Below, piece after piece: positions 24 through 13,460 of a stretch of DNA of 18,125 nt. How positions within the stretch are numbered: position 1 is the stretch's first letter; each line of letters opens with the position of its first letter. Below the pieces are notes generated by a model, which saw only the letters and a program-made list of their open reading frames with translations, searched no databases and was not told where the DNA came from. The DNA comes from Abditibacteriaceae bacterium (GTDB lineage: Bacteria > Armatimonadota > Abditibacteriia > Abditibacteriales > Abditibacteriaceae). The translations under genes were made by a program, and so were the position numbers. Where the stretch lies: assembly GCA_031425655.1 (NCBI GenBank), contig JANPJS010000007.1, positions 1 through 18,125 of the forward strand, read 5' to 3'.

Positions 24-312
24 CAGGGCAAACGCATTGCTCCGCATCTCCCGGTTAAAACCGGGAGCTATAGTTACAACGTCCGCCTGCGCGGACTAAA
101 ACTTGAGTCCGCGCAGGCGGACTTTGTATGCGTAGACCCCGATTTCAATCGGGGTGACAGGGCAAACGCATTGCTCTGTCACCCCGATTGAAATCGGGGT
201 CTACGCATACAAAGTCCGCCGGCGCGCCCAAACCCTGGCGTCCGCGCAGGCGCACTTTGTAACTATACCTCCCGGTTACAACCGGGAGATGCGGAGCAAT
301 GCGTTTGCCCTG
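24..312. repeat. BIME-like cluster of four REP-type units forming a nested inverted repeat
   Basis: Outer arms 24-96/240-312 are near-perfect reverse complements; inner arms 116-160/176-220 are a perfect 45-bp inverted repeat. Each unit is a GTCCGCGCAGGCGGAC-type hairpin plus a GTAG/ATAG-type tag plus a second hairpin (ACCCCGATTTCAATCGGGGT or CTCCCGGTT..AACCGGGAG). The linker CAGGGCAAACGCATTGCTC occurs at 24-42, 158-176 and (reverse) 294-312. Confidence 0.9.
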
Positions 313-3300: not shown

Positions 3301-3873
3301 AAATTCTGGTGGTATGTCTGCACGGTGCCCAAAGCGCCTTACGCCACGCTGTTTATAGATCACCCGGCCACCGAAATGCGCGTCTGGCTCTGGCAAACCT
3401 GGCAGCGCGGCATCAGCGGCGTGCTGGTGTGGGAAACCGCGTATTGGACGAGCGACTCGGCTTACCCCGACGCGCCGCAAAACCCTTACGCCGACCCGAT
3501 GAGCTGGGTTTCGGGTTACAGCACCGCCAAAGGCGCCAAACTGCCGTGGGGCAACGGCGACGGGCGCTTCATTTATCCGCCCGAAGCCGCCGCCAATGCC
3601 AACTCGCAGGCGCCCGTCATCGCCGGGCCGGTGGATTCGATTCGCTGGAAAATGCTGCGCGACGGCCTAGAAGATTACGAATATCTGGCCATTCTACGCC
3701 GATTGTTGAACGCGAAAAAAGTGCCACACACACGCCGCGCCGCGCTCGAAAAGCTGCTGATCGTGCCAGAATCCATCACGCGCAACGCCACAACTTTCAC
3801 GCGCGACCCGGCCCCGATGGAAGCCCGCCGCGCCGAGCTTGCACGGGCGATTGAAGAACTTTCAGTTCATTAA
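367..3873 (+). CDS. Secreted multi-domain glycoside hydrolase, GH123-like / DUF4091-containing, with two CBM4/9-like modules
   Basis: 1168-aa ORF. Signal peptide MKICIWLACLCAFANIAVA; N-terminal CBM-like module (VKNSGFS...FDDVHL); GH123 N-terminal-like motif ISAARNESEAAQFVL; WFDEP acidic pair; WWYVC; C-terminal DUF4091-like GDGRFIYP...SIRWKMLRDGLEDYEYL. Confidence 0.75.
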   Translation: MKICIWLACLCAFANIAVAATVEVKNSGFSTQNGQVSGWKLSGGNGRGVSEKGNDFVAVKGDGGDSNYWRSEAPDFQPNATYRLLFRARGTGASGGTPISGPGFANRDLGGLGKQWHTFTTYFTTPRQLTPDNSWLRFGQWNVNGEIAFDDVHLATAQPVYARSGSLELGEGESVSGNEYSCRAPLDGESNNTSRALLSHNCNFNTNRWVFGADSEVIYKHAVAGRKQTAAQIEVGVTWHSGGVLAIDASRDGQNWVPLASQDKLGTLSPTIPAELLPAEAIFIRLRAAATQKVGANSDPGSFQVGSYRFRSKFDGAPLNLRGSTRFFAIEKESPGLRVKILDAGDGVPGGRNEVRLEIERSQNGPQKIAAGFSASLLNPPENSLGVRGSSPKTLVLGKQTVVLPYSMPTTGDMSGNISLRMNDATRLPLFEASTTWNVPELYAANYGEKLPASTRDNKLWWCSSGWKISQTRPAPDKTGVALKISAARNESEAAQFVLRPNGGLKNLTIQTAPLRSKNGTIDAKNIEILRVRYVDITQPTDATGTAAAWPDPLPPIGAPLNLAPNVNQPFWLRVRVPKDAKPGLYSGAIRLRADGYDATMPIQLTVWNFALPDSLTCQTAFGFSPENVYRYQKLDTPAQRRQVLDLYLKNFSAHHVSPYDPAPLDPIKVTWQGGSSWQGGQRSAEGAHSGKHSLLVADSSATKQFSARYAVPLGIAKAGLKLSFWYRTQGAARSIVTLNHNDANGQWMSGRNNDMAFEGDGSWQHFERVVTQFPAGAHSVTLTLWAAPWADDGSTTGAVSFDDVSVIDLTSGKELLTDGAFENANAAAPRPIFDWTAWDAAMEKAIGQYGFNSFRLAPQGLGGGTFASRDEPELLGFRENTPEYEAALKAYLQGIEAHLKAKDWLDKAFVYWFDEPDPKDYAFVMNGFAKLKNYAPGLQRMLTEQPEKDLIGGPNLWCPVTPEFQQSIADERTKAGDKFWWYVCTVPKAPYATLFIDHPATEMRVWLWQTWQRGISGVLVWETAYWTSDSAYPDAPQNPYADPMSWVSGYSTAKGAKLPWGNGDGRFIYPPEAAANANSQAPVIAGPVDSIRWKMLRDGLEDYEYLAILRRLLNAKKVPHTRRAALEKLLIVPESITRNATTFTRDPAPMEARRAELARAIEELSVH

Positions 3874-3963
3874 ACACAAAGACACGAAGGCACAAAGGAC
3901 GGCACAAAGAATCTTATATCGTTTCTCTGTGCCGTCCTTTGTGTCTTCGTGTCTTTGTGTTTA
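3871..3963. repeat. 41-bp inverted repeat built from CACAAAGA-type 8-mers between convergent genes; possible bidirectional terminator or mRNA stabiliser
   Basis: Arms 3871-3911 and 3923-3963, 2 mismatches, 11-nt loop. The left arm begins at the TAA of the upstream gene. Confidence 0.9.
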
Positions 3964-3967
3964 GAAA

Positions 3968-4846
3968 CTACTGCAAAAGTTCGCGCACTAAATCGGGAAT
4001 CTCGCTCGGCAGTTCGACGACGCGGGCGCCGGCGGCTTCGAGCGCCGCAATTTTCGCCTGTGCGGTGCCGGCGCTGCCGCTGACGATTGCACCGGCGTGG
4101 CCCATGCGCTTGCCGGCGGGCGCGGTTTTTCCGGCGATGAAGCCGATGACGGGTTTAGTCATGGTTTTGATGAATTCGGCGGCTTTTTCTTCGTCGTTGC
4201 CGCCGATTTCGCCGGCCATGACCACGATTTCCGTATCGGCGTCGTCCTCAAACCAACCCAGCACATCCACGAAACTGGAACCGATAATCGGGTCGCCGCC
4301 GATGCCGACGCAGGTGGTTTGGCCCAATCCGGCGCGCGTCAGTTCGTCCACGATTTCATAAGTCAGTGTGCCGCTGCGCGAGACGATGCCGACGTTGCCG
4401 GGCATGAAAATATCGGCGGGCATGATGCCGATTTTGCATTCGCCGGGCGTGATTAATCCGGGGCAGTTGGGGCCGATCATCCAGCCGTTGCGCTCCTGCA
4501 AAAAGCGGTAGCACTTCATCATGTCCTGAATCGGAATGCCTTCGGTGATGCACACGATGCCGTGAATGCCGGCGTCAATGGCCTCGAAAATCGCGTCCGC
4601 GCCAAAGGGCGGCGGCACGAAAATCACGCTGGTATCGGCGCCGGTCATCTCGACGGCTTCGGCCACGGTGTTGAAAACCGGAACCGTATCGTCGCCGTGC
4701 TCGATGAATTGACCGCCTTTGCCCGGCGTGACGCCGGCCACGACATTAGTGCCGTATTCGAGCATTTGCCGCGTGTGGAACTCGCCTTCGCGGCCCGTTA
4801 CGCCCTGCACCAAAACTTTGGTTTCTTTGTTAATTAGAATCGCCAT
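3968..4846 (-). CDS. sucD: Succinate--CoA ligase subunit alpha
   Basis: [45 protein letters not shown] and the phospho-His motif [16 protein letters not shown] upstream. Confidence 0.98.
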
Positions 4847-5444
4847 TTGTCGTTTCCTTGTCGTTAAGTCCGGCGTCGTCCAACGCCTTTTCCAGTAAAT
4901 CCGCCACGTTAATCTCGTGCGCCCAATGTGCGAGGTAATCGAAGTCGAGATTGAAGCACTGCATTTTCAGCACGCCGGTGATGTCGCCCCATTGCTTATC
5001 CGAAGTGCCGCCCGTTGCACGAAACCATTCGATTTTTGCCAAAACCACGTCTTCCGGCTGCGCCATAAATGCTTCCATGAACGGCGGGTTGCCCAATGGC
5101 CCGAATTCGCGTCGCTTGGCAACTTCCCTATCGTAGGTTCGCTGCTTTAATGGAAAAACGTCAATCTTAAAAAACGTGGTCTTGTGAATGATATTAAACG
5201 TTCCAGCGCGCCGAACTTCGCGCTCAATCATTTGGTCATCCACATGAAAGTCGGCACTTAGACTCTGCACTAACGCTGCGACGTGTTCGCTGCGCAGGTC
5301 GGCAACGATGTCAATGTCCTGAGTCATGCGCGCGATGCTCCACGTCGTGCTGGCAACTGAACCCACCACGAAATACACCACGTCGAGAGATTCCAACGCT
5401 TGTGTAAATGGCTTCAGAGTCTGTGCGAGCGGAAGGTTCATCAC
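4830..5444 (-). CDS. Putative nucleotidyltransferase toxin, MenT1/AbiEii-superfamily-like
   Basis: NTase signature [17 protein letters not shown] (hGS...DhD), KIDVF, EDVVLAK, QWGD. Start is GTG 5444 or ATG 5441. The 3' end overlaps the sucD start by 17 bp. Confidence 0.7.
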
Positions 5445-5450
5445 GTTTCT

Positions 5451-5717
5451 TTATGAAGATGGCTTCACTGCTATTGTCCGACGAATCTTTGCAGCCCATT
5501 CATCTCCGTAATGCACTTCAACCCAATGCAAAGACACTTCCTGCTCGCTCCACTGAGGATGGCGGCGCCTCACGCCGGCACGCCATAAATCAATCGCGGC
5601 TTCGGTGATGTCGCTCGTCATCTGAAATCGTTCAGCCGGTGTTTTCTGGCGGAGCAAATCGAACAGCAGCTTTTCCATTTCCGGCGAAGTGTCGGGCGAT
5701 TGCGTTTTGTAAGGCAT
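5451..5717 (-). CDS. Small helical protein (88 aa), putative MenA1-like antitoxin
   Basis: Start re-called at ATG 5717 (MPYKTQSPDTSPEME) with SD GAGGGGAG. Motif PAERFQMTSDITEAAIDLWRAGVRRRHPQWSEQEV. Lies 6-9 bp upstream of the NTase gene. Confidence 0.6.
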   Translation of the reverse strand: MPYKTQSPDTSPEMEKLLFDLLRQKTPAERFQMTSDITEAAIDLWRAGVRRRHPQWSEQEVSLHWVEVHYGDEWAAKIRRTIAVKPSS

Positions 5718-5728
5718 AATGACTCCCC

Positions 5729-6103
5729 TCACCGCGTCACGCCGTCGAAGGCGCCGCCGCCTTGTAATTCGTATTCGCAATACAAGCATTTGCGATGGCG
5801 CTGCGAAACGGGACGATGGCACTGCGGGCATTCGGTGACGGCGGGGCGCACATGACCATCCAGATCGCCATCCTGCAAATCGAGCGCTGTCACCTGCTGA
5901 ATCAATTCTTCATCCGTCCAGCCTTCGTGCTTTTTCACCAACGTCCACAACGCCATACTCAGCAGCGCCAAACGATCAACGCGCTGCTCCAATTCAGCCA
6001 CGCGGTCGGCCAAATACTCGGTGCGCCGCGCGCCTAATTCCTCACCGACTTCGCTTCCGTCACGCCAATTAGCACGACCTCCGAGCAAACCTTGCAATGC
6101 CAT
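5729..6103 (-). CDS. Hypothetical protein with coiled coil, acidic DxxDGxxDG loop and C-terminal Zn-ribbon
   Basis: 124 aa with SD GGAGG; RVAELEQRVDRL coiled coil; DLQDGDLDG; CPQC-x10-CLYC. Confidence 0.75.
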   Translation of the reverse strand: MALQGLLGGRANWRDGSEVGEELGARRTEYLADRVAELEQRVDRLALLSMALWTLVKKHEGWTDEELIQQVTALDLQDGDLDGHVRPAVTECPQCHRPVSQRHRKCLYCEYELQGGGAFDGVTR

Positions 6104-6133
6104 GTTGCCTCCGAACCTTTCCGCATCCAGATA

Positions 6134-6282
6134 CTTTCAATAGAACACGGGTTTCGCGAAAACGGCCACGGATCTACACGGTTTTTGAAGGCAATCCCCA
6201 AAGTGACTTGCCTTTTTCATCCATAACAACGAATCCGTGTAAATCCGTGGCCGTTTCCGCGAAATCCGTGTTCCATTGAAAG
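6134..6282. repeat. 48-bp inverted repeat with repeated CACGG/TCCGTG units
   Basis: Arms 6134-6181 and 6235-6282 with 4 transition mismatches; inner stem AAGGCAA (6188-6194)/TTGCCTT (6208-6214); ends in CCATTGAAAG. Confidence 0.9.
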
Positions 6283-6319
6283 CCTCGGCAGCAGCTCTCT
6301 ATTTTGCGCAAGAAATTTC

Positions 6320-7456
6320 TTACGCGGCGTTAACAAGTGCCACGATCTTCTGTGCGCCTTCCTGCATCGTCGCGGCAGGCGTGAGCGTGCTGCCTTCAAG
6401 AAGGGCCAGACCTTCGGCGGCGCGCGTGCCGGTTAAACGCACCACAATCGGCACCTGAATGTTCATGGTGCCGATTGCTTCGAGCATTCCCTTCGCCACT
6501 TCGTCGCCGCGCGTGATGCCGCCGAAAATGTTGAAGAAAATGCCTTTTACATTCTTATCAAGCAAAACCGTGTCAATCGCTTTGGTCACGACTTCGGCTT
6601 TGGCGCCGCCGCCGATGTCGAGGAAGTTGGCCGGGCGTCCGCCTTCGCGCTGCACTACGTCAAGCGTCGTCATCACCAAGCCGGCGCCGTTGCCGATGAT
6701 GCCGATGTCGCCTTCCAAACGCACATAAGTCAGGCCGCGCTTGTGCGCTTCGGCTTCAATGGGGTCTTCTTCCTGCGCTTCCTGAAACTGCGCCATGTCG
6801 GGATGGCGAAACAGCGCGTTGTCGTCAATGTTGATTTTGGCGTCGGCGGCGATGAGCTTGCCTTCGCCGTTGAGAACAAGCGGGTTGATTTCGGCTAAAG
6901 AGCAATCGAAATCGTTGTAAACCTTGTAAAGCGCCTTGAGAAACGGCCCGATTTGCTTCACTGCCGCTGCGGGAAGTTTGGCGTCGAAGGCCAACTGGCG
7001 AATCTGAAAATCGAGCAGGCCCAATGCCGGATCAAGGTGCAGTTTGGCGATTTTTTCGGGTGTTTCTTCCGCGACTTCTTCGATGTCAATGCCGCCCGCC
7101 GCCGATACCATCACGATGTTGCGCCGCTCAGCGCGGTCGGTCGTAATGCCGATGTAATATTCCTCTTTGATGTCGCAAGCCTGCTCGACCAGCACTTCGG
7201 CGACGGTCAGACCTTTGATGTCCATGCCTAAAATGCGTTCGCTGACCTCGCGCGCTTCGTTGGCCGTGGCCGCCAACTTGATCCCGCCGGCTTTGCCGCG
7301 TCCGCCGACGTGAACCTGCGCCTTGACGACAACCGTGCCGCCAATTTCAGCGGCGATGACTTTGACTTCATCCGGCGTGCGCGCCACGCGCCCGGCGGGA
7401 ATCGGCACGCCGTAGCGCGCGAAGATTTCTTTGGCCTGATACTCGTGAATTTTCAT
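6320..7456 (-). CDS. sucC: Succinate--CoA ligase subunit beta
   Basis: Start re-called at ATG 7456 (MKIHEYQAKE), SD AGGA. Motifs VVKAQVHVGGRGKAGG, EINPL, DDNALFRH, GNGAGLVM, ANFLDIGGGA, NIFGGI. Confidence 0.98.
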   Translation of the reverse strand: MKIHEYQAKEIFARYGVPIPAGRVARTPDEVKVIAAEIGGTVVVKAQVHVGGRGKAGGIKLAATANEAREVSERILGMDIKGLTVAEVLVEQACDIKEEYYIGITTDRAERRNIVMVSAAGGIDIEEVAEETPEKIAKLHLDPALGLLDFQIRQLAFDAKLPAAAVKQIGPFLKALYKVYNDFDCSLAEINPLVLNGEGKLIAADAKINIDDNALFRHPDMAQFQEAQEEDPIEAEAHKRGLTYVRLEGDIGIIGNGAGLVMTTLDVVQREGGRPANFLDIGGGAKAEVVTKAIDTVLLDKNVKGIFFNIFGGITRGDEVAKGMLEAIGTMNIQVPIVVRLTGTRAAEGLALLEGSTLTPAATMQEGAQKIVALVNAA

Positions 7457-7466
7457 AAGTTCCTGT

Positions 7467-7531
7467 GGTGCTGGGTTGTGGGTTTTGGGTGCTGGAAACA
7501 GGCTAAAACCCAGCACCCAACGCCCAACACC
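7467..7531. repeat. Inverted arrays of 7-mer tandem repeats (GGTGCTG/GGTTTTG type, STRR-like)
   Basis: Left GGTGCTG GGTTGTG GGTTTTG GGTGCTG (7467-7494); right TAAAACC CAGCACC CAACGCC CAACACC (7504-7531). Confidence 0.8.
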
Positions 7532-7537
7532 TAATTT

Positions 7538-7864
7538 CTATCCGCCTTGCTGCAAGCGATGCACTTCCGAAGAAAAGCGCACTGTGTCTTCGATGAAACT
7601 CGTGATTTCGGCTTCTTCGCCCAAAACGGCGATGTGTTCGTCGGCCTGCGCGATGGCTTCGCGCATTTTTACGCGCATGGCCTCGTCTTCGGCTAAATCA
7701 AGTTCGTCTTGCAAAAGAGCGCGGCGCTTTTCCAGAGCGCGCTTCAATTGAAACCATTCCGCCGCGCGCGGTTGTCCTTCTAACGCTTCGCCAATCGCTT
7801 CATCTAAGGCTGCGTCGTAGGACTCATCACGCGGCAAACTTTCGTGCGGCAAATCTTCGGGCAT
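7538..7864 (-). CDS. Hypothetical acidic helical/coiled-coil protein (108 aa)
   Basis: Start re-called at ATG 7864 (MPEDLPHES) on the basis of SD GGAGG; helical E/A/R-rich composition; no family recognised. Confidence 0.7.
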   Translation of the reverse strand: MPEDLPHESLPRDESYDAALDEAIGEALEGQPRAAEWFQLKRALEKRRALLQDELDLAEDEAMRVKMREAIAQADEHIAVLGEEAEITSFIEDTVRFSSEVHRLQQGG

Positions 7865-7886
7865 TTTGGCCTCCGCAGCGCACGCG

Positions 7887-7895
7887 AGTATAGCA
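7887..7895 (-). promoter_or_regulatory. Putative extended -10 promoter TGCTATACT for the hypothetical-sucC-...-sucD unit
   Basis: The minus strand reads TG-C-TATACT, ending 22 nt upstream of ATG 7864, in the gap after the dnaJ stop. Confidence 0.55.
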
Positions 7896-7935
7896 ATCCG
7901 CGTCGCGCCGTTCGTTTCGTCGGTGTTAAGCGTTT

Positions 7936-9087
7936 TCAATCGCCTAAAATGGCATCTTTCAGGCGATGCAGCAAGCCGCGCGGATGCTCGGCGACTTGCT
8001 CATCCGAAGTGCTGGCGAATTCGCGCAAAAGCTCTTTCTGGCGCTCGGTCAAGCGTTTGGGAACGATGATGCGCGCCACGCAAATCTGGTCGCCGCGTGC
8101 GCCATAGGAATTAGGAAAGCCTTTATCAGCGATGCGAAACACGTCGCCGGTTTGCGTCGCGGCGGAAACCGTGAGAGTGGTTTTGATCGGCTCGCCGTCA
8201 GTTCCAATTTCCAAAGTCGGCACTTCTACGGTATCGCCCAGCGCCGCTTGGGGAAACGTCAGCGGCAACACGCACGCCACATCGTTGCCGTGACGCTCGA
8301 ACAAATCATGCTCTTGCAGATAAATAAAGCCGTATAAATCGCCGGGCGGGATGCCGTTTTGGCCTTCTTCTCCGGCGCCGGGCACGCGAATCTGCGTGCC
8401 TTCATCTACACCGGCGGGAATCCGCACCGTGACTTCGCGTTTGCCGCGCACGCGGCCTTCGCCGTGACAATCGGCGCACGGATTCGGCACGATTTGCCCG
8501 GTGCCGTTGCAGCGAGTGCAGGGCGTTTCCTGCACAAATTGGCCGAAAAACGTGGTTTTCACGCTGCGCGTGCGCCCGCTGCCGGCGCATTGCACGCACT
8601 TTTCAACCGACGTGCCGGGCGCCGCCCCGCTGCCGCTGCACGTCTTGCAGCCGAGCATGGTGGCGATGTCAAGCGTGCGTGTGGCGCCGGCCCACGCTTC
8701 TTCGAGCGTGAGTTGCAAATTGGCGCGCAGATGGTTGCCCTGACGCGCCGCCTCGCGGCGCTGCCCGCCAAACGGCGAGCCGCCGCCACCTCCGAAAAAC
8801 ACGTCAAAAATGTCGTTCAGATTGACGTTGTTCATGTCCGGGCCGCCCGCGCCGCCTAATCCAGCTTCGCCGTATTGATCGTAACGCGCGCGTTTTTCGG
8901 GGTCGGAAAGAACTGTATAAGCCGCGCCGATTTCTTTGAATTTCGCTTCGGCGGCCTCGCGGCGTTCGGGGTTTACGTCCGGGTGATGCTCGCGCGCTAA
9001 AAGTCGGTAAGCGCGCTTGATGTCGTCGGCGCTGGCGTTGCGCTGCACGCCTAAAATCTCGTAATAATCTTTGGTCATCGTAGCCAT
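7936..9087 (-). CDS. dnaJ: Molecular chaperone DnaJ (class A)
   Basis: J-domain [14 protein letters not shown]-rich region; four CxxCxGxG repeats ([32 protein letters not shown]); C-terminal domain. Confidence 0.97.
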
Positions 9088-9097
9088 AAATCAACTT

Positions 9098-9637
9098 TTA
9101 ACGTGCGACTTTAACGCTGCTGGCGCGCAGCACCTGTCCTTTATAGGTGTAACCGCGCTGCGCTTCTTCGACGACAGTGCCGGGCGCGTGCTCGTCCGAT
9201 TCGACCTGATCAAGCGCCTCATGCTGCATCGGATCGAAGGGCTTGCCCTGCGCTTCAATCGGCGTCACGCCGTGGTTTTGCAAGGCGTTTTGGAACATTT
9301 GCAAAATGAATTCGATGCCGATGCGCAGTGAACTCATATCCGTCGCACTTTTCGAGGCATCCACGGCGCGCTGGAAATTATCGAGAACCGGCAGCAGGTC
9401 TTCGACTACCGAACGCACCGCGCGGTCTTTGACTTCGCTTTCGCGCCGCGCCGTCTGGCGCTTGTAATTCTCGAAATCGGCAGCTAATTGCAACAGTGCC
9501 GCTTTGGTTTGCGCCAGTTCTTCCTGCATTTGCGCCCATTCGTCGGCGCCTTGCTCCGTCATTTCGTCTTCCGGCACGGCCTCCTCGACGACCTCATCGG
9601 CGATTTCTTCTTTATTTAAAATTGGAATGCGAACCAT
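9098..9637 (-). CDS. grpE: Nucleotide exchange factor GrpE
   Basis: ADFENYKRQ, LLPVLDNFQRA, FDPMQHEA, GYTYKGQVLRASSVKV; SD GAGGA. Confidence 0.96.
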   Translation of the reverse strand: MVRIPILNKEEIADEVVEEAVPEDEMTEQGADEWAQMQEELAQTKAALLQLAADFENYKRQTARRESEVKDRAVRSVVEDLLPVLDNFQRAVDASKSATDMSSLRIGIEFILQMFQNALQNHGVTPIEAQGKPFDPMQHEALDQVESDEHAPGTVVEEAQRGYTYKGQVLRASSVKVAR

Positions 9638-9660
9638 GATATTTTCCTCTCAGAATGCGG

Positions 9661-9807
9661 AATGGCACGCGGAGCCTGTGGCTTCGCGGACTTCGTGCGC
9701 GGATTTTCGCCGATTGAGTGATAGATTTCACACCATTCTCTCTATTTCTCGGCCGCGAAAATCCGCGCACGAAGTCCGTGTGACGAAGTCCCGCGTCCCA
9801 TTGAAAG
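9661..9807. repeat. Long inverted repeat between hrcA and grpE, related to the 6134-6282 element
   Basis: Perfect 24-bp core 9687-9710/9755-9778; outer stem 9661-9672/9791-9802 (1 mismatch); repeated TCCGYG units; ends in CCATTGAAAG (9798-9807). Confidence 0.85.
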
Positions 9808-9820
9808 TTCCGCGTTCAAT

Positions 9821-10888
9821 TTACAACGTTTCCAAGCAAAAGCGCAGGCGCGCGGCCAAAGCCGGCATCAGCGAAATTGCATCGGTGTAATTCATGCGCG
9901 TCGGGCCAAGCACGCCGACGGTGCCCAAAATCTCGCCGCCCGCGCCGTAAGCCACGCCCACGAGGGAAAACCGCTCGACGGCGGGATTGATCGAATGCGG
10001 CAATTCGTGGCCGATGACGACTGTGTGCGGCGTTGGCGAGTCGGAGGAAAACGAAGTGCGCAGCAAATCGCCGAGCATAATTTGGTCGTCGAAAAGCTGC
10101 ATCGCGGCCCTCGCGTGGCCGATTTCCGAAAATTCCGGCTCGTTGAGCAAGGTAATCAAGCCTTGCACCATGACTTTTTCATCGCCGACTTCAGCCACCG
10201 ATTGACGCACCATTTCCCACGCGCGGCGCGCCACACTGATCGCTTCGGCATCGTGCAAACCCGCCGAAACGTCTTCAAAATTCAGCGAGCGCACCGCGCC
10301 CAACGGCTTGCCACCAAGTTGCTCATTGAGGAAGTTCACGACCGTTCGCACACGATGCTCCGGCACGCCGCCCTCGACATCGAAAAGACGATGCTCAATG
10401 CGTCCGGCGCCGGTTACCAACACTAAAATCAGGCGGCAGGGCGGAATCGGATTGAGTTGCACATGACGCATCGTATCCTGCCGCGCGGCGGGCAGCGAAG
10501 CCACAGCGGGATAGCCGGTTAGCTTCGCCAAAGCCACCGTCGCATCGCGCAAGGCGTCTTCGAGCGAGCCGGGTGGCGCCGGCAGCCACGATTCCAGATG
10601 CTCCCGTTCGGCAGCGCGCAGAGGTCGCGGACGTAGCATTTCGTTGACGTAAACGCGGTAGCCGGCGTCGGTTGGCACACGCCCCGCCGAGGTGTGCGGA
10701 TGCTTCAGCAAACCCAAGTCTTCGAGTTCCGCCAGCTCGTTGCGAATCGTGGCCGACGACAATTGACCGCACAAGCCGACGACCTGCGGGTCGCCAACCA
10801 GCGCCGCCGAACCCACAGGTTCGGCGCTGGCCACATAACGCTCGATCACCGCCGCCAACAAGATTTTCTGTCGAGACTTTAGAATCAT
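9821..10888 (-). CDS. hrcA: Heat-inducible transcription repressor HrcA
   Basis: RQKILLAAVIERYV..EPVGS, SSATIRNELAELEDLGLL.HPHTSAGRVPTDAGYR.YV, GVLGPTRMNY. Confidence 0.97.
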   Translation of the reverse strand: MILKSRQKILLAAVIERYVASAEPVGSAALVGDPQVVGLCGQLSSATIRNELAELEDLGLLKHPHTSAGRVPTDAGYRVYVNEMLRPRPLRAAEREHLESWLPAPPGSLEDALRDATVALAKLTGYPAVASLPAARQDTMRHVQLNPIPPCRLILVLVTGAGRIEHRLFDVEGGVPEHRVRTVVNFLNEQLGGKPLGAVRSLNFEDVSAGLHDAEAISVARRAWEMVRQSVAEVGDEKVMVQGLITLLNEPEFSEIGHARAAMQLFDDQIMLGDLLRTSFSSDSPTPHTVVIGHELPHSINPAVERFSLVGVAYGAGGEILGTVGVLGPTRMNYTDAISLMPALAARLRFCLETL

Positions 10889-10968
10889 AGTTTTGAGTTT
10901 TGAGTTTTGAGTTTTGAGTTCAGAATTGACTGCATCAACTCAAAACTCACAATTCAAAACTCAAAACT
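10889..10968. repeat. Inverted (AGTTTTG)n heptamer arrays exactly filling the mnmA-hrcA gap
   Basis: Left arm 10889-10920 = (AGTTTTG)x4 AGTT; right arm 10937-10968 is the reverse complement with 2 mismatches; 16-nt loop. Confidence 0.93.
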
Positions 10969-12048
10969 TTATCGAATCGTTCCTGCGCCCAATACTTCGT
11001 CACCGTCGTAGAGCACGCACATTTGGCCGGGCGTCACGCCGTGCTGGGCTTCGTCGAAGCGAATTTCAAAATCGTCCTCACTGGCACTGACCAGCGTTCC
11101 GGGCCACGGGCGGGCATGAGCGCGCGTTTGGGCGAGGATTTTCATCTCGGCGGGCGGCGGCGCGAACGACCACTTCGTCTTTTCGGCGCCAAGTCCGTCG
11201 CACGCTAACTCTTCGCGCGGGCCGACGACGAGCGTGTTGCTTGGCGCGTCAATTTTGGTGACGAAAAGCGGATGCGCCGCCGCGATGCCCAGCCCTTTGC
11301 GCTGCCCGACGGTATAACGCGCCAAACCGTTATGATCGCCGATTTTGTGGCCGCTTTCGTCCAAAATCGGCCCGGCGAGGGCCATTTCCGGCGCGCGTTC
11401 GATGACAAAGCGCGCGTAATCGCCATCTTCGACGAAGCAAATTTCCTGACTATCGGGCTTGGCCGCAACGCAAAAACCAAGCTCGGCGGCACGTTGCCGC
11501 GTTTCGGTTTTTTCCATGTGCCCGATAGGCAATAATGTGCGCGATAATTCGCGCTGCGTCAGCATTCCCAGCACATAGCTTTGATCTTTGCGATGATCGG
11601 CGCCGCGCCGCAAAGCGAAACGTGATCCGCGCGCGTCGTCAATCTGCTCAATTTGCGCGTAATGGCCGGTTGCGATGAAGTCGCAATCCAATTCGTCGGC
11701 GCGGTCGAGAAACGACTTGAATTTGATGAATTCGTTGCACCGCGCGCACGGATTCGGCGTGCGGCCCCGCGCATATTCGGCCACGAAGTCGTCCACGACG
11801 GCCTGATGAAACTCTTCCTGCAAGTTCAACACATAATAAGGCACGCCAAGCTGATCGGAAACGCGCCGCGCATCCTCGGACGCGCCGACGGTGCAGCAGC
11901 CGCCGAAGCGATGCGCCGCGAAGGGGTCATCCTCGCCTTTCCACAGTTTCATGGTGACGCCGATGACTTCGTAACCTTGTTCCACCAAAAGCGCCGCTGC
12001 AACGCTGGAATCCACGCCGCCGCTCATCGCGCATAAAACTCGTTTCAT
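10969..12048 (-). CDS. mnmA: tRNA 2-thiouridine(34) synthase MnmA
   Basis: PP-loop AMSGGVDSSV, GRTPNPCARCN, ATGHYA, KDQSY, DSQEICF, YTVGQRKGLG, TPGQ. Confidence 0.98.
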   Translation of the reverse strand: MKRVLCAMSGGVDSSVAAALLVEQGYEVIGVTMKLWKGEDDPFAAHRFGGCCTVGASEDARRVSDQLGVPYYVLNLQEEFHQAVVDDFVAEYARGRTPNPCARCNEFIKFKSFLDRADELDCDFIATGHYAQIEQIDDARGSRFALRRGADHRKDQSYVLGMLTQRELSRTLLPIGHMEKTETRQRAAELGFCVAAKPDSQEICFVEDGDYARFVIERAPEMALAGPILDESGHKIGDHNGLARYTVGQRKGLGIAAAHPLFVTKIDAPSNTLVVGPREELACDGLGAEKTKWSFAPPPAEMKILAQTRAHARPWPGTLVSASEDDFEIRFDEAQHGVTPGQMCVLYDGDEVLGAGTIR

Positions 12049-12100
12049 TTTTTAGTCTCTCGCAAAGACGCAAAGTCGCAAAGAAGTCCAAGCCCTTTAT

Positions 12101-12302
12101 TAAGTAGCCGGACACAATTAAATGAGGATAACGCGGGTGTCATTCCGAGCGGAGCCGCCGGTCGTTTGACGGCGCAGTCGAGGAATCTTTTCCTCGTCGC
12201 ACGGCAAGATTCCTCGACCCTGCCCAGAGGGCGCCGGCTCGTCCCTCGCTCCGCTCGGAATGACACGGCTATTAATCTCAACTAATTCTGCCCGACTACT
12301 TA
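12101..12302. mobile_element. Putative MITE-like element with TAAGTAG termini (middle layer)
   Basis: Imperfect 31-bp terminal inverted repeats 12101-12131/12272-12302 (7 mismatches) beginning TAAGTAG; TA at both ends is compatible with a TA target site; no transposase. Confidence 0.5.
12137..12266. repeat. TGTC/CGTC-type REP dimer (inner layer), branched cruciform
   Basis: Perfect 19-bp arms GTGTCATTCCGAGCGGAGC 12137-12155/12248-12266; perfect 13-bp inner stem GTCGAGGAATCTT 12177-12189/12206-12218; short side hairpins between the stems. Confidence 0.85.
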
Positions 12303-13460
12303 CCTTTGCGCCTTTGCGTCTTTGCGAGAGACCAATTCCTCCAAAACTTCCAAAAACTCGTCTACTTCGTCCGCTGTGTTTTGCGGGCCGAAGGAAATGC
12401 GCAGCGAGGCTTTGGCTTCGTCAGCGCTGCGTCCCATCGCCGATAAAACGTGCGACGGCTCCAAAGCGCCGGACGCGCACGCCGAGCCTGTTCCTACCGC
12501 GATGCCGCGCAAATCGAGATTCAACGCCAGCGATTCGGCGCGCTGTCCGGGCAGCGATACATTGCTGATATGCGGCGCCCGCGCGGCACCTTCACCGTTA
12601 ATCCGGGCGCCGGAAAAAGCGCGCAAACCGCTTTCCAATCGTTCGCACAGCGCCGTCAAGTGCGCCGCGTTCGCTTCCAAATTCTCGCGCGCGATTTGCG
12701 CCGCCGCGCCGAAACCGACGATGCCCGGCACGTTTTCGGTTCCCGCACGGCGTCCTCGCTCCTGACCGCCGCCGCGAAAAATCGGTTTCATACGCTGTCC
12801 GCGCCGCATCCACAACGCGCCTACGCCTTTTGGCCCGCCGATTTTATGCGCCGAAAACGTCAGTAAATCAGCGGCCAACTCTTCGACATTGAGCGGAATT
12901 TTGCCCGCCGCCTGCACCGCATCGCTGTGTAATGCGATTTCACGTTCGCGCGTGATTTCGGCGATTTTCTCAAGCGGTTGGCGCACGCCGGTTTCGTTGT
13001 TGACCAGCATGACCGAAACGAGGCACGTTTCGGGACGCAGCAGGCGCTCAACGGTTTCGGCTTCGCACACGCCCTGCGCGTCAACCGGCGCGTGTTCGAT
13101 TTCAAAACCCAGTTCGGCCAGCGTTTCGGCGCCTTCGAGCACGGCATGATGCTCAATCGCCGAAATCAGGACGTGTTTTTTATCGCTTTGCCAGTGAGAT
13201 AACGCGATGCCGAGCAACGCCCAGTTGTCGCTTTCGGTGCCGCCCGACGTGAAAACGATTTCGTCGGGATACGCGCCGATCAGCGCCGCAACTTGCGCTC
13301 TGGCGCGGTCAACGGCCATGCGCGCTTTGCGGCTCACGGCATACGGGCTGCTGGCGTTGCCGAAAACCTCGCGGAGATACGGCTCCATTGCGCCGCGCGC
13401 CGCTTCGCTGAGCGGAGTCGTCGCTGCGTTGTCGAAATAGATGCGTGTGCTTTTTTCCAT
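12300..13460 (-). CDS. iscS: Cysteine desulfurase (IscS/NifS group I, YrvO-like partner of MnmA)
   Basis: IYFDNAATT, FTSGGTESDN, IEHHAV, PLP-lysine motif SAHKIGGPKG, RAGTENV, catalytic GSACAS. Start ATG 13460 (alternative TTG 13472). Confidence 0.93.
   Translation of the reverse strand: MEKSTRIYFDNAATTPLSEAARGAMEPYLREVFGNASSPYAVSRKARMAVDRARAQVAALIGAYPDEIVFTSGGTESDNWALLGIALSHWQSDKKHVLISAIEHHAVLEGAETLAELGFEIEHAPVDAQGVCEAETVERLLRPETCLVSVMLVNNETGVRQPLEKIAEITREREIALHSDAVQAAGKIPLNVEELAADLLTFSAHKIGGPKGVGALWMRRGQRMKPIFRGGGQERGRRAGTENVPGIVGFGAAAQIARENLEANAAHLTALCERLESGLRAFSGARINGEGAARAPHISNVSLPGQRAESLALNLDLRGIAVGTGSACASGALEPSHVLSAMGRSADEAKASLRISFGPQNTADEVDEFLEVLEELVSRKDAKAQR

Follow-up and report, generated by a model that had tools for sequence, protein, structure and literature searches.

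Word-armed hairpins at gene junctions of an Abditibacteriaceae genome as probable gene-less copies of arm-gene-arm cassettes

The 23S rRNA of Coxiella burnetii carries an intervening sequence (IVS) with a 28-bp stem and tandem heptamers upstream of an S23p open reading frame (ORF), which is excised by RNase III (PMC4990558; this and the following works are cited from the available portions of their texts). The four-helix-bundle protein is a pentamer in Xanthomonas, as cited in PMC4990558, and Avd, the S23-like barrel of diversity-generating retroelements, is pentameric, positively charged and binds RNA (10.1101/2023.10.23.563531). Intergenic heptamer repeats are described from Xanthomonas and Nostoc, with 70-75 inverted pairs in Xanthomonas and, in the text available, no reported link to mobile elements (PMC4692102); Beggiatoaceae have junction-hugging TAACTGA heptamers (PMC4679880). 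REPINs, hairpin-forming doublets of repetitive extragenic palindromes (REPs), and tagged REPs are defined in PMC3116915 and PMC3733652. Here we describe six hairpins in an 18,125-nt stretch of DNA (the window) from an Abditibacteriaceae bacterium (GenBank assembly GCA_031425655.1, contig JANPJS010000007.1), all of which sit between protein genes and none in an rRNA helix (Table 1). The hairpins are real, non-random and part of a widespread system in which arms built of short repeated words enclose small cargo genes. The six are probably gene-less copies of such IVS-like arm-gene-arm cassettes, which would be spread by the cognate cargo proteins.

The window is the entire contig C7 of the host genome G000 (5.98 Mb, 327 contigs, 97% complete); G001, G002, G003, G005, G007, G008 and G013 are relatives, of which G003 is congeneric. 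Named by our reading of Pfam matches, its genes are a GH123-like gene and, on the minus strand, nifS, mnmA, hrcA, grpE, dnaJ, a small ORF, sucC, three small ORFs and sucD. A preliminary description of this DNA had proposed six palindromes, and five of them stand well above chance, with inverted-repeat scores of 51-77 against maxima of 20-25 in 100 dinucleotide shuffles each. Their arms pair at 39/41 positions (3871-3963), 46/51 with a core of 44/48 (6134-6282), 30/32 (10889-10968) and 28/29 (12055-12083 with 12304-12332), and the hairpin at 9661-9807 has a 24/24 core (9687-9710/9755-9778) with a ragged outer part; the paired length in window copies is 24-46 bp. The sixth, 7467-7531, is barely above chance (24 versus a shuffle maximum of 23; best ungapped pairing 15/17) and was not picked up by the genome scan, but we accept it as a decayed copy because it keeps a 7-mer periodicity and has an orthologue in G003. 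An Rfam search of the window returned no family at gathering score, only sub-threshold microRNA look-alikes.

The preliminary description had placed these hairpins at nearly every gene junction, in three families of two copies. They in fact fill 6 of the 13 window junctions (6 of the 8 gaps of at least 40 nt, the other five junctions being too short for one), and the five clear copies belong to five different families (8, 1, 3, 0 and 9), the sixth resembling family 22 by eye. For the pairs it proposed, the arms of one copy are indeed closer to each other than to the supposed sister, but the sisters are members of different families; measured against the whole family, the partner arm (identity 0.90-0.99) beats the median member and not the best one. 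The hairpin ends do lie near codons, as described: position 3871 is the stop of the upstream gene, 10889 and 10968 are flush with the hrcA ATG and the mnmA stop, 7467 and 7531 lie 10 and 6 nt from an ATG and a stop, and 12055 lies 6 nt from the mnmA ATG. The 3871-3963 hairpin extends from the GH123-like stop to 4 nt short of the sucD stop, these two genes being convergent, and NifS reads through the 12304-12332 arm to its stop at 12300.

Scanning of G000 yielded 1,434 inverted repeats, 444 of which have periodic arms (period 7 in 295, period 8 in 86). Clustering of 1,155 non-coding inverted-repeat pairs gave 14 families with 7-8-mer arms and 12 with 8-10-mer or composite arms, about 26 word families in all, in addition to REP-like families (class labels are our own). 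The window hairpins fall into six families of 15-84 copies each. With junctions defined by our own gene caller (4,479 genes, start positions approximate), repeat-armed hairpins occupy 554 of 4,008 junctions: 444/3,015 co-oriented, 77/484 convergent and 33/509 divergent. They thus account for about 1% of the genome and are present at 14% of the junctions, and the window copies are, as had been supposed, members of a multicopy, junction-bound set.

This junction preference extends to codon boundaries. Among 220 sites of the 7-mer class 196 are co-oriented, and at these the upstream stop lies -6 to +10 nt from the arm in 143 cases; beyond the other arm comes an in-frame ATG in 136, compared with 5 and 10 out of frame. 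The same two measures gave 130/249 and 98/249 for the longer-word class, and 19/123 and 27/123 for REP-like controls; part of the stop effect arises because the arms themselves carry stop codons. With the element removed, the median gap is 14 nt at 7-mer sites versus 69 nt at free junctions. The polarity of the arms is constant throughout the genome, as the preliminary description had it within the window: the commonest word forms the left arm 84 times and its complement 8 times. This word family is free of G runs. The median paired arm length in large families is 25-37 bp, and paired arms cover 4-5 heptamers at 176 of 211 sites (arms of at least 20 bp scanned).

The preliminary description suggested that loaded forms may exist in other genomes, and this very genome indeed has four-helix-bundle and GxxExxY genes between such arms. 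The cargo candidates in G000 are 9 PF13366 (GxxExxY nuclease-like) and 7 PF05635 (four-helix-bundle) genes; inverted arms (score at least 28) flank 14 of these 16, the exceptions being C193, with degenerate arms, and C106, which encodes a longer protein and has a hairpin upstream only. Helix-bundle genes have 7-8-mer arms and GxxExxY genes longer words (8-10-mer or composite). Over six genomes (the G000 genes plus 41 loci from five relatives, with 2 dropped at contig ends), arms at the same threshold flank 50 of 55 scorable cargo genes versus 17 of 442 small G000 genes, a control pool that itself contains some cargo genes. In a phylum-wide set of 30 four-helix-bundle loci, 25 were scored (3 had been scored already and 2 weak matches were omitted), 2 of them lay at contig ends, and 20 of the remaining 23 passed the arm test, 19 of the 20 with period 7.

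Four window hairpins have a loaded twin in G000, matched by eye: that of 10889-10968 surrounds a four-helix-bundle gene (C92:12200-12637), and those of 6134-6282, 9661-9807 and 12055-12332 surround GxxExxY genes on C215, C228 and C143, respectively. Family 8 (3871-3963) has no loaded copy in G000, its nearest loaded arms, again by eye, being L068 in G002 and L057 in G005. Loaded forms with an extra arm (left-gene-left-right and similar) occur at C74, C126 and C143 in G000 and at L047, L059, L062 and L065 in relatives.

At G000:C106:16830-17561 a divergent, longer GxxExxY-like protein, possibly a third cargo type, follows a family-18 hairpin (20 genome pairs, 12 with a common loop). The inverted repeat around the GxxExxY gene at G000:C260:1482-1988 runs over roughly the last 15 nt of the upstream gene, an extension that is not general across families. 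Hairpins of one family also bracket ordinary genes (rbfA-, rplB-, mreC-like and others; G000 contigs C174, C207, C28, C119, C151 and C222), which could mimic cargo. Apparent tRNA genes (by eye) are flanked by word hairpins at G000:C85:2179-2510 and C273:8581-8915; at the C85 site G003 keeps 7-mer hairpins with another word.

GxxExxY proteins have an intact PD-(D/E)XK catalytic D...E-x-K motif, with D68, E78, K80 and QxxxY unchanged throughout the 13 aligned proteins, and a predicted restriction-endonuclease-like fold (best Z 8.5, rmsd 2.9, 95 aligned residues, no standout relative), and are putative nucleases. No solved structure matched them by sequence, and Holliday-junction resolvases do not stand out among the fold matches (Hjc, Z 6.5, is one of many). 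In the available text of PMC3424549, PF13366 is listed as of function unknown with many transfers, and that of 10.1101/2021.01.26.428298 names GxxExxY in passing only.

Arm word follows the lineage of the cargo protein, clearly for helix bundles and partially for GxxExxY. Several supported clades, in trees built from 33 helix-bundle and 24 GxxExxY proteins, have one word in common at different sites and in different genera. Among helix bundles, arm similarity rises with protein identity (Mantel test, n=24, rho 0.19, p 0.002, a result that also holds with permutation within genomes), and the nearest protein is among the top three arm neighbours for 11/24 helix-bundle and 10/19 GxxExxY proteins, with about 3 expected. 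These sets exclude 4 weak-arm rows, 2 contig ends and same-site duplicates, and the p-values overstate the link, because kin are not independent.

The empty units appear to be copied whole, since 76 of 224 loop cores recur at other sites. Hairpins less than 3 kb apart share a family in 21 of 165 cases, versus 10.5 expected. In family 0 the irregularity of the arms follows transcription, the 5′ arm being less regular in 51 cases to 11; the ratio is 12:2 in family 15, and families 10 and 21 have no asymmetry. Insertion at hairpin tips was considered and set aside, with few nested cases among word families.

The preliminary description attributed the match between arms to arm-to-arm templating or to selection on RNA pairing, and each finds partial support. 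Joint change is clear in one orthologous pair (L058/L063, 16 columns changed in both arms versus 6 in one) but not in the other 9 pairs, in which joint changes are fewer than single ones (alignments include flank columns). The idea that a partner arm matches better than any family member fails (7-mer class: 50 better, 46 equal, 95 worse; GxxExxY-type arms: 136 better, 84 equal, 110 worse). As for pairing, GxxExxY-type arms show a modest excess of G-U over A-C mismatches on the sense strand (163 vs 124), selection for G-U pairs being weak in them (62 vs 42), but 7-mer arms show none (85 vs 138), their A-C excess coming from the more variable upstream arm (84 vs 45 deviations). Nor are stems weaker where no Shine-Dalgarno site follows (p 0.40 and 0.32).

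The contents of orthologous junctions, a comparison the preliminary description had called for, differ between relatives. Between mnmA and hrcA, gene order is kept in 17 of 22 loci, and 8 of the 17 have heptamer hairpins, with six different words (by eye); the remaining junctions include a REP, a decayed arm and a 15-bp gap in G001. Loaded loci of relatives are syntenic in G000 in 15 of 41 rows (12 junctions), none with the gene or the same word there; by eye, these 12 G000 junctions hold seven other-word hairpins, one lone arm, one REP, no insert in one case and other genes in two. One G000 junction is an overlapping stop/start where three congeners carry a GxxExxY cassette. Of 155 junctions syntenic between G000 and G003 (over 1.2 Mb of the roughly 5.3 Mb of G003), 20 have a hairpin in both genomes, 39 just in G000, 10 just in G003 and 86 in neither (odds ratio 4.4, p 6e-4), with a detector that is biased towards G000 families and will overlook decayed copies in relatives. 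At the 20 shared junctions the class is the same in 18-19 and the family, that is, the word, in only 4. This turnover of words within a kept class suggests overwriting of the resident hairpin. The hairpins are thus neither single-copy nor bound to one conserved junction, nor do they lack codon enrichment or cargo, all of which the preliminary description had taken as marks of ordinary terminators or stabilisers.

The same comparisons bear on the best-surviving alternative, in which the hairpins are RNA elements kept by the host: a stem of about 30 bp at operon junctions would be selected for mRNA processing, stabilisation or translational coupling, its words drifting in place by slippage and template switching and homogenised by gene conversion, with cargo proteins as passengers or binding regulators. 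A GxxExxY-type hairpin directly follows sucD in 6 of 6 genomes, although the downstream gene differs, and in the 5 of 5 relatives this longer-word hairpin is of differing families. Class and gap length are retained at shared junctions, paired arm length stays near 25-37 bp in large families, the arm on the start-codon side is the more regular one, and a translational role was proposed for the TAACTGA repeats (PMC4679880). Many congener junctions have no hairpin at all, however, as at the 39 of 155 occupied in G000 only and the G001 mnmA-hrcA gap; 7-mer arms lack a G-U excess, the mismatch rate is independent of the Shine-Dalgarno site, and discrete families that match cargo lineages are not expected from independent drift. 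We regard host-kept RNA elements as an unlikely explanation.

We return to gene-less cassettes spread by cargo proteins as the preferred reading, and suggest how such spread might work. Each cargo protein would read the arm word that is its own and assist the copying of arm-bounded units, loaded or empty; the copies would enter narrow junctions between genes, in many cases replacing a resident hairpin of their class. GxxExxY would likely cut DNA at extruded arms, and the helix-bundle pentamer may bind an unpaired arm by its 4-5 heptamers; the unit would then be copied into the junction by host repair, on which the helix bundle would rely. The host would tolerate the insert because the stem of about 30 bp would fold away from the mRNA, keeping stop and start near each other, much as the 23S IVS does in rRNA.

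Alternatively, the hairpins could be elements like REPINs or MITEs (miniature transposable elements with inverted repeats), moved in trans by a separate transposase, with small genes captured between the arms. The terminal inverted repeats and shared loops would suit this, and G000 has six Y1 transposase genes (PF01797); yet word arms flank 0 of these 6, two or three being flanked by other palindromes, and capture would not explain why there are two fixed cargo families that each keep to an arm period of their own. Target duplications, which the preliminary description had proposed looking for and which a MITE should leave, were not evident, flanking direct repeats being no commoner than expected in 7 of the 8 GxxExxY-type families tested (family 12, n=14, gave 0.005 uncorrected). 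The genes seen between arms at inspected sites are cargo or housekeeping genes, no search aimed at DDE families having been made. We consider this explanation, already weakened, quite improbable. Least probable is that extra-arm cassettes lose their gene by direct-repeat recombination, leaving immobile empties as landing pads while released circles re-enter other hairpins: extra-arm forms exist in G000 and relatives and neighbouring hairpins share a family twice as often as by chance, but there are about 35 empty hairpins per loaded copy, loops lack cargo remnants and many are common to distant sites, and entry into a junction without a hairpin, as at C193, is unaccounted for. Even jointly, these last two explanations seem rather unlikely.

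Several results tell against spread by cargo proteins. The guaA cassette is kept in G000, G002 and G013 with a one-letter change of word, and at the ORF-sucC junction (7467-7531) G003 has the same downstream arm and loop with another upstream word; such vertical persistence with single-step word drift needs no mobility. In G005 (0.4 Mb) just 1 of 44 junctions is occupied in both genomes (p 0.63), and a metagenome search for close strains gave a best match of 60% identity, hence no clean filled/empty pair. The Mantel test fails for GxxExxY (n=19, rho 0.05, p 0.32-0.38), several large families have no loaded copy in G000, and none of the 224 loop cores examined is a cargo remnant. Four-helix bundles have no known catalytic activity, and G000, the one genome searched (97% complete, as above), has no reverse transcriptase match (PF00078). 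That units move, and that arms are bound and cut, we infer from sequence.

Table 1. Hairpins and associated repeats in the window
Feature	Position	Strand	Family (pairs or copies in genome)	Location	Basis
Empty 8-mer-armed hairpin, GxxExxY-type	3871..3963	.	8 (38 pairs)		
Empty composite-armed hairpin	6134..6282	.	1 (63 pairs)	sucC/small ORF junction	
Decayed 7-mer-armed hairpin	7467..7531	.	like 22 (15 pairs)	small ORF/sucC junction	by eye
Empty composite-armed hairpin	9661..9807	.	3 (49 pairs)	hrcA/grpE junction	
Empty 7-mer-armed hairpin	10889..10968	.	0 (84 pairs)	mnmA/hrcA junction	
8-mer-armed hairpin	12055..12332	.	9 (38 pairs)	nifS/mnmA junction	
CGTC/TGTC-type REP doublet, unrelated	12137..12266	.		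nested in 12055-12332 loop	alignment, fold; assigned by inspection
Copy of 17-20 nt insert	12219..12235	+	(231 copies)		11-nt core search

Other repeats of the window are distinct from the word hairpins. The 17-20 nt insert is G+C-rich; 100 of its G000 copies lie inside detected inverted repeats, it takes the place of 4-5 nt of the host repeat in sampled cases, and it is present in G001 too (L055). It is reminiscent of the small dispersed repeats of cyanobacteria. Window 24-312 is a nested palindrome of REP-like family 13 (outer arms 73 nt at 93%, inner 56 nt at 96%), and similar repeats flank a Y1 transposase at G000:C12:4782-5123; it is likely a REPIN cluster linked to a REP-associated tyrosine transposase (RAYT). 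The CGTC/TGTC REP class is as described in PMC3733652. At G000:C191:4252-4528, C319:17143-17464 and C290:15010-15334 we observed onion-like nests, with word arms outermost, a shared inverted shell and a REP doublet innermost. Between sucC and sucD, window 4830-5717 (minus strand) encodes a putative toxin-antitoxin pair, a DUF6036-like nucleotidyltransferase (below cut-off) and an Rv0078B-related antitoxin; the pair lies near sucC in G007 and G013 and is not between sucC and sucD in G002, G003 and G008.

A full-text literature search, which lacked most subscription journals and supplements, found no paper joining arms, cargo and empty copies genome-wide. New here are the matching of four window families to loaded twins in the same genome and the pattern of kept class and changed word at orthologous junctions. 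These results tie two large orphan protein families (TIGR02436 and TIGR04256) to a defined nucleic-acid partner, and suggest, in testable form, where intergenic heptamer repeats and ORF-bearing IVSs come from, a question left open in the available texts of PMC4679880 and PMC4990558. With about 26 word families and 16 cargo genes in one genome, cognate and non-cognate protein-word pairs can be compared side by side, and if protein-word specificity is true, these would be very small sequence-specific binders and nucleases. More tentatively, a possible wider picture is a mobile system that does without a transposase: two unrelated small proteins, each with a private tandem word, would target operon stop-start junctions and overwrite same-class rivals, with about one in seven junctions contested, and rRNA IVSs and the heptamers of Xanthomonas, Nostoc and Beggiatoa would be scattered pieces of this system.

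Among described systems, a loaded 7-mer cassette is already published for rRNA, namely the Coxiella 23S IVS. It shares with the present elements terminal inverted repeats that form a stem of about 28 bp (close to the medians in large families here), a patchy distribution, and heptamers with four-helix-bundle cargo (TIGR02436/PF05635), the latter in loaded twins such as C92, the window copies being empty. Unlike it, the elements described here lie at mRNA gene junctions, exist in hundreds of gene-less copies and many word families, and include a second, GxxExxY class; RNase III excision was shown there, whereas the present system is known from its sequence alone. The heptamers of Xanthomonas, Nostoc and Beggiatoaceae likewise lie between aligned genes, with one arm just past the stop and the other just before the start, but in the available texts (PMC4692102, PMC4679880) single words are treated as simple sequence repeats, G-quadruplex or translation signals, and no cargo gene is named. 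Avd offers a precedent for arm binding by an S23-like pentamer; unlike its retroelements, G000 has no reverse transcriptase match, and the hairpins have no template or variable repeat. Finally, the REPIN-RAYT system (PMC3116915, as far as its available text goes) is alike in its many gene-less extragenic inverted doublets, each family tied to a cognate gene flanked by the same repeat, in the coexistence of several families and in nesting. It differs in that the cognate genes here are not Y1 transposases, the arms are tandem 7-10-mers and not short palindromes (with just a small internal palindrome in families 1 and 3), and the gene lies inside the hairpin, at different sites in relatives. By analogy, the present system would work like a REPIN-RAYT pair built from IVS-like parts, while fitting the definition of neither.

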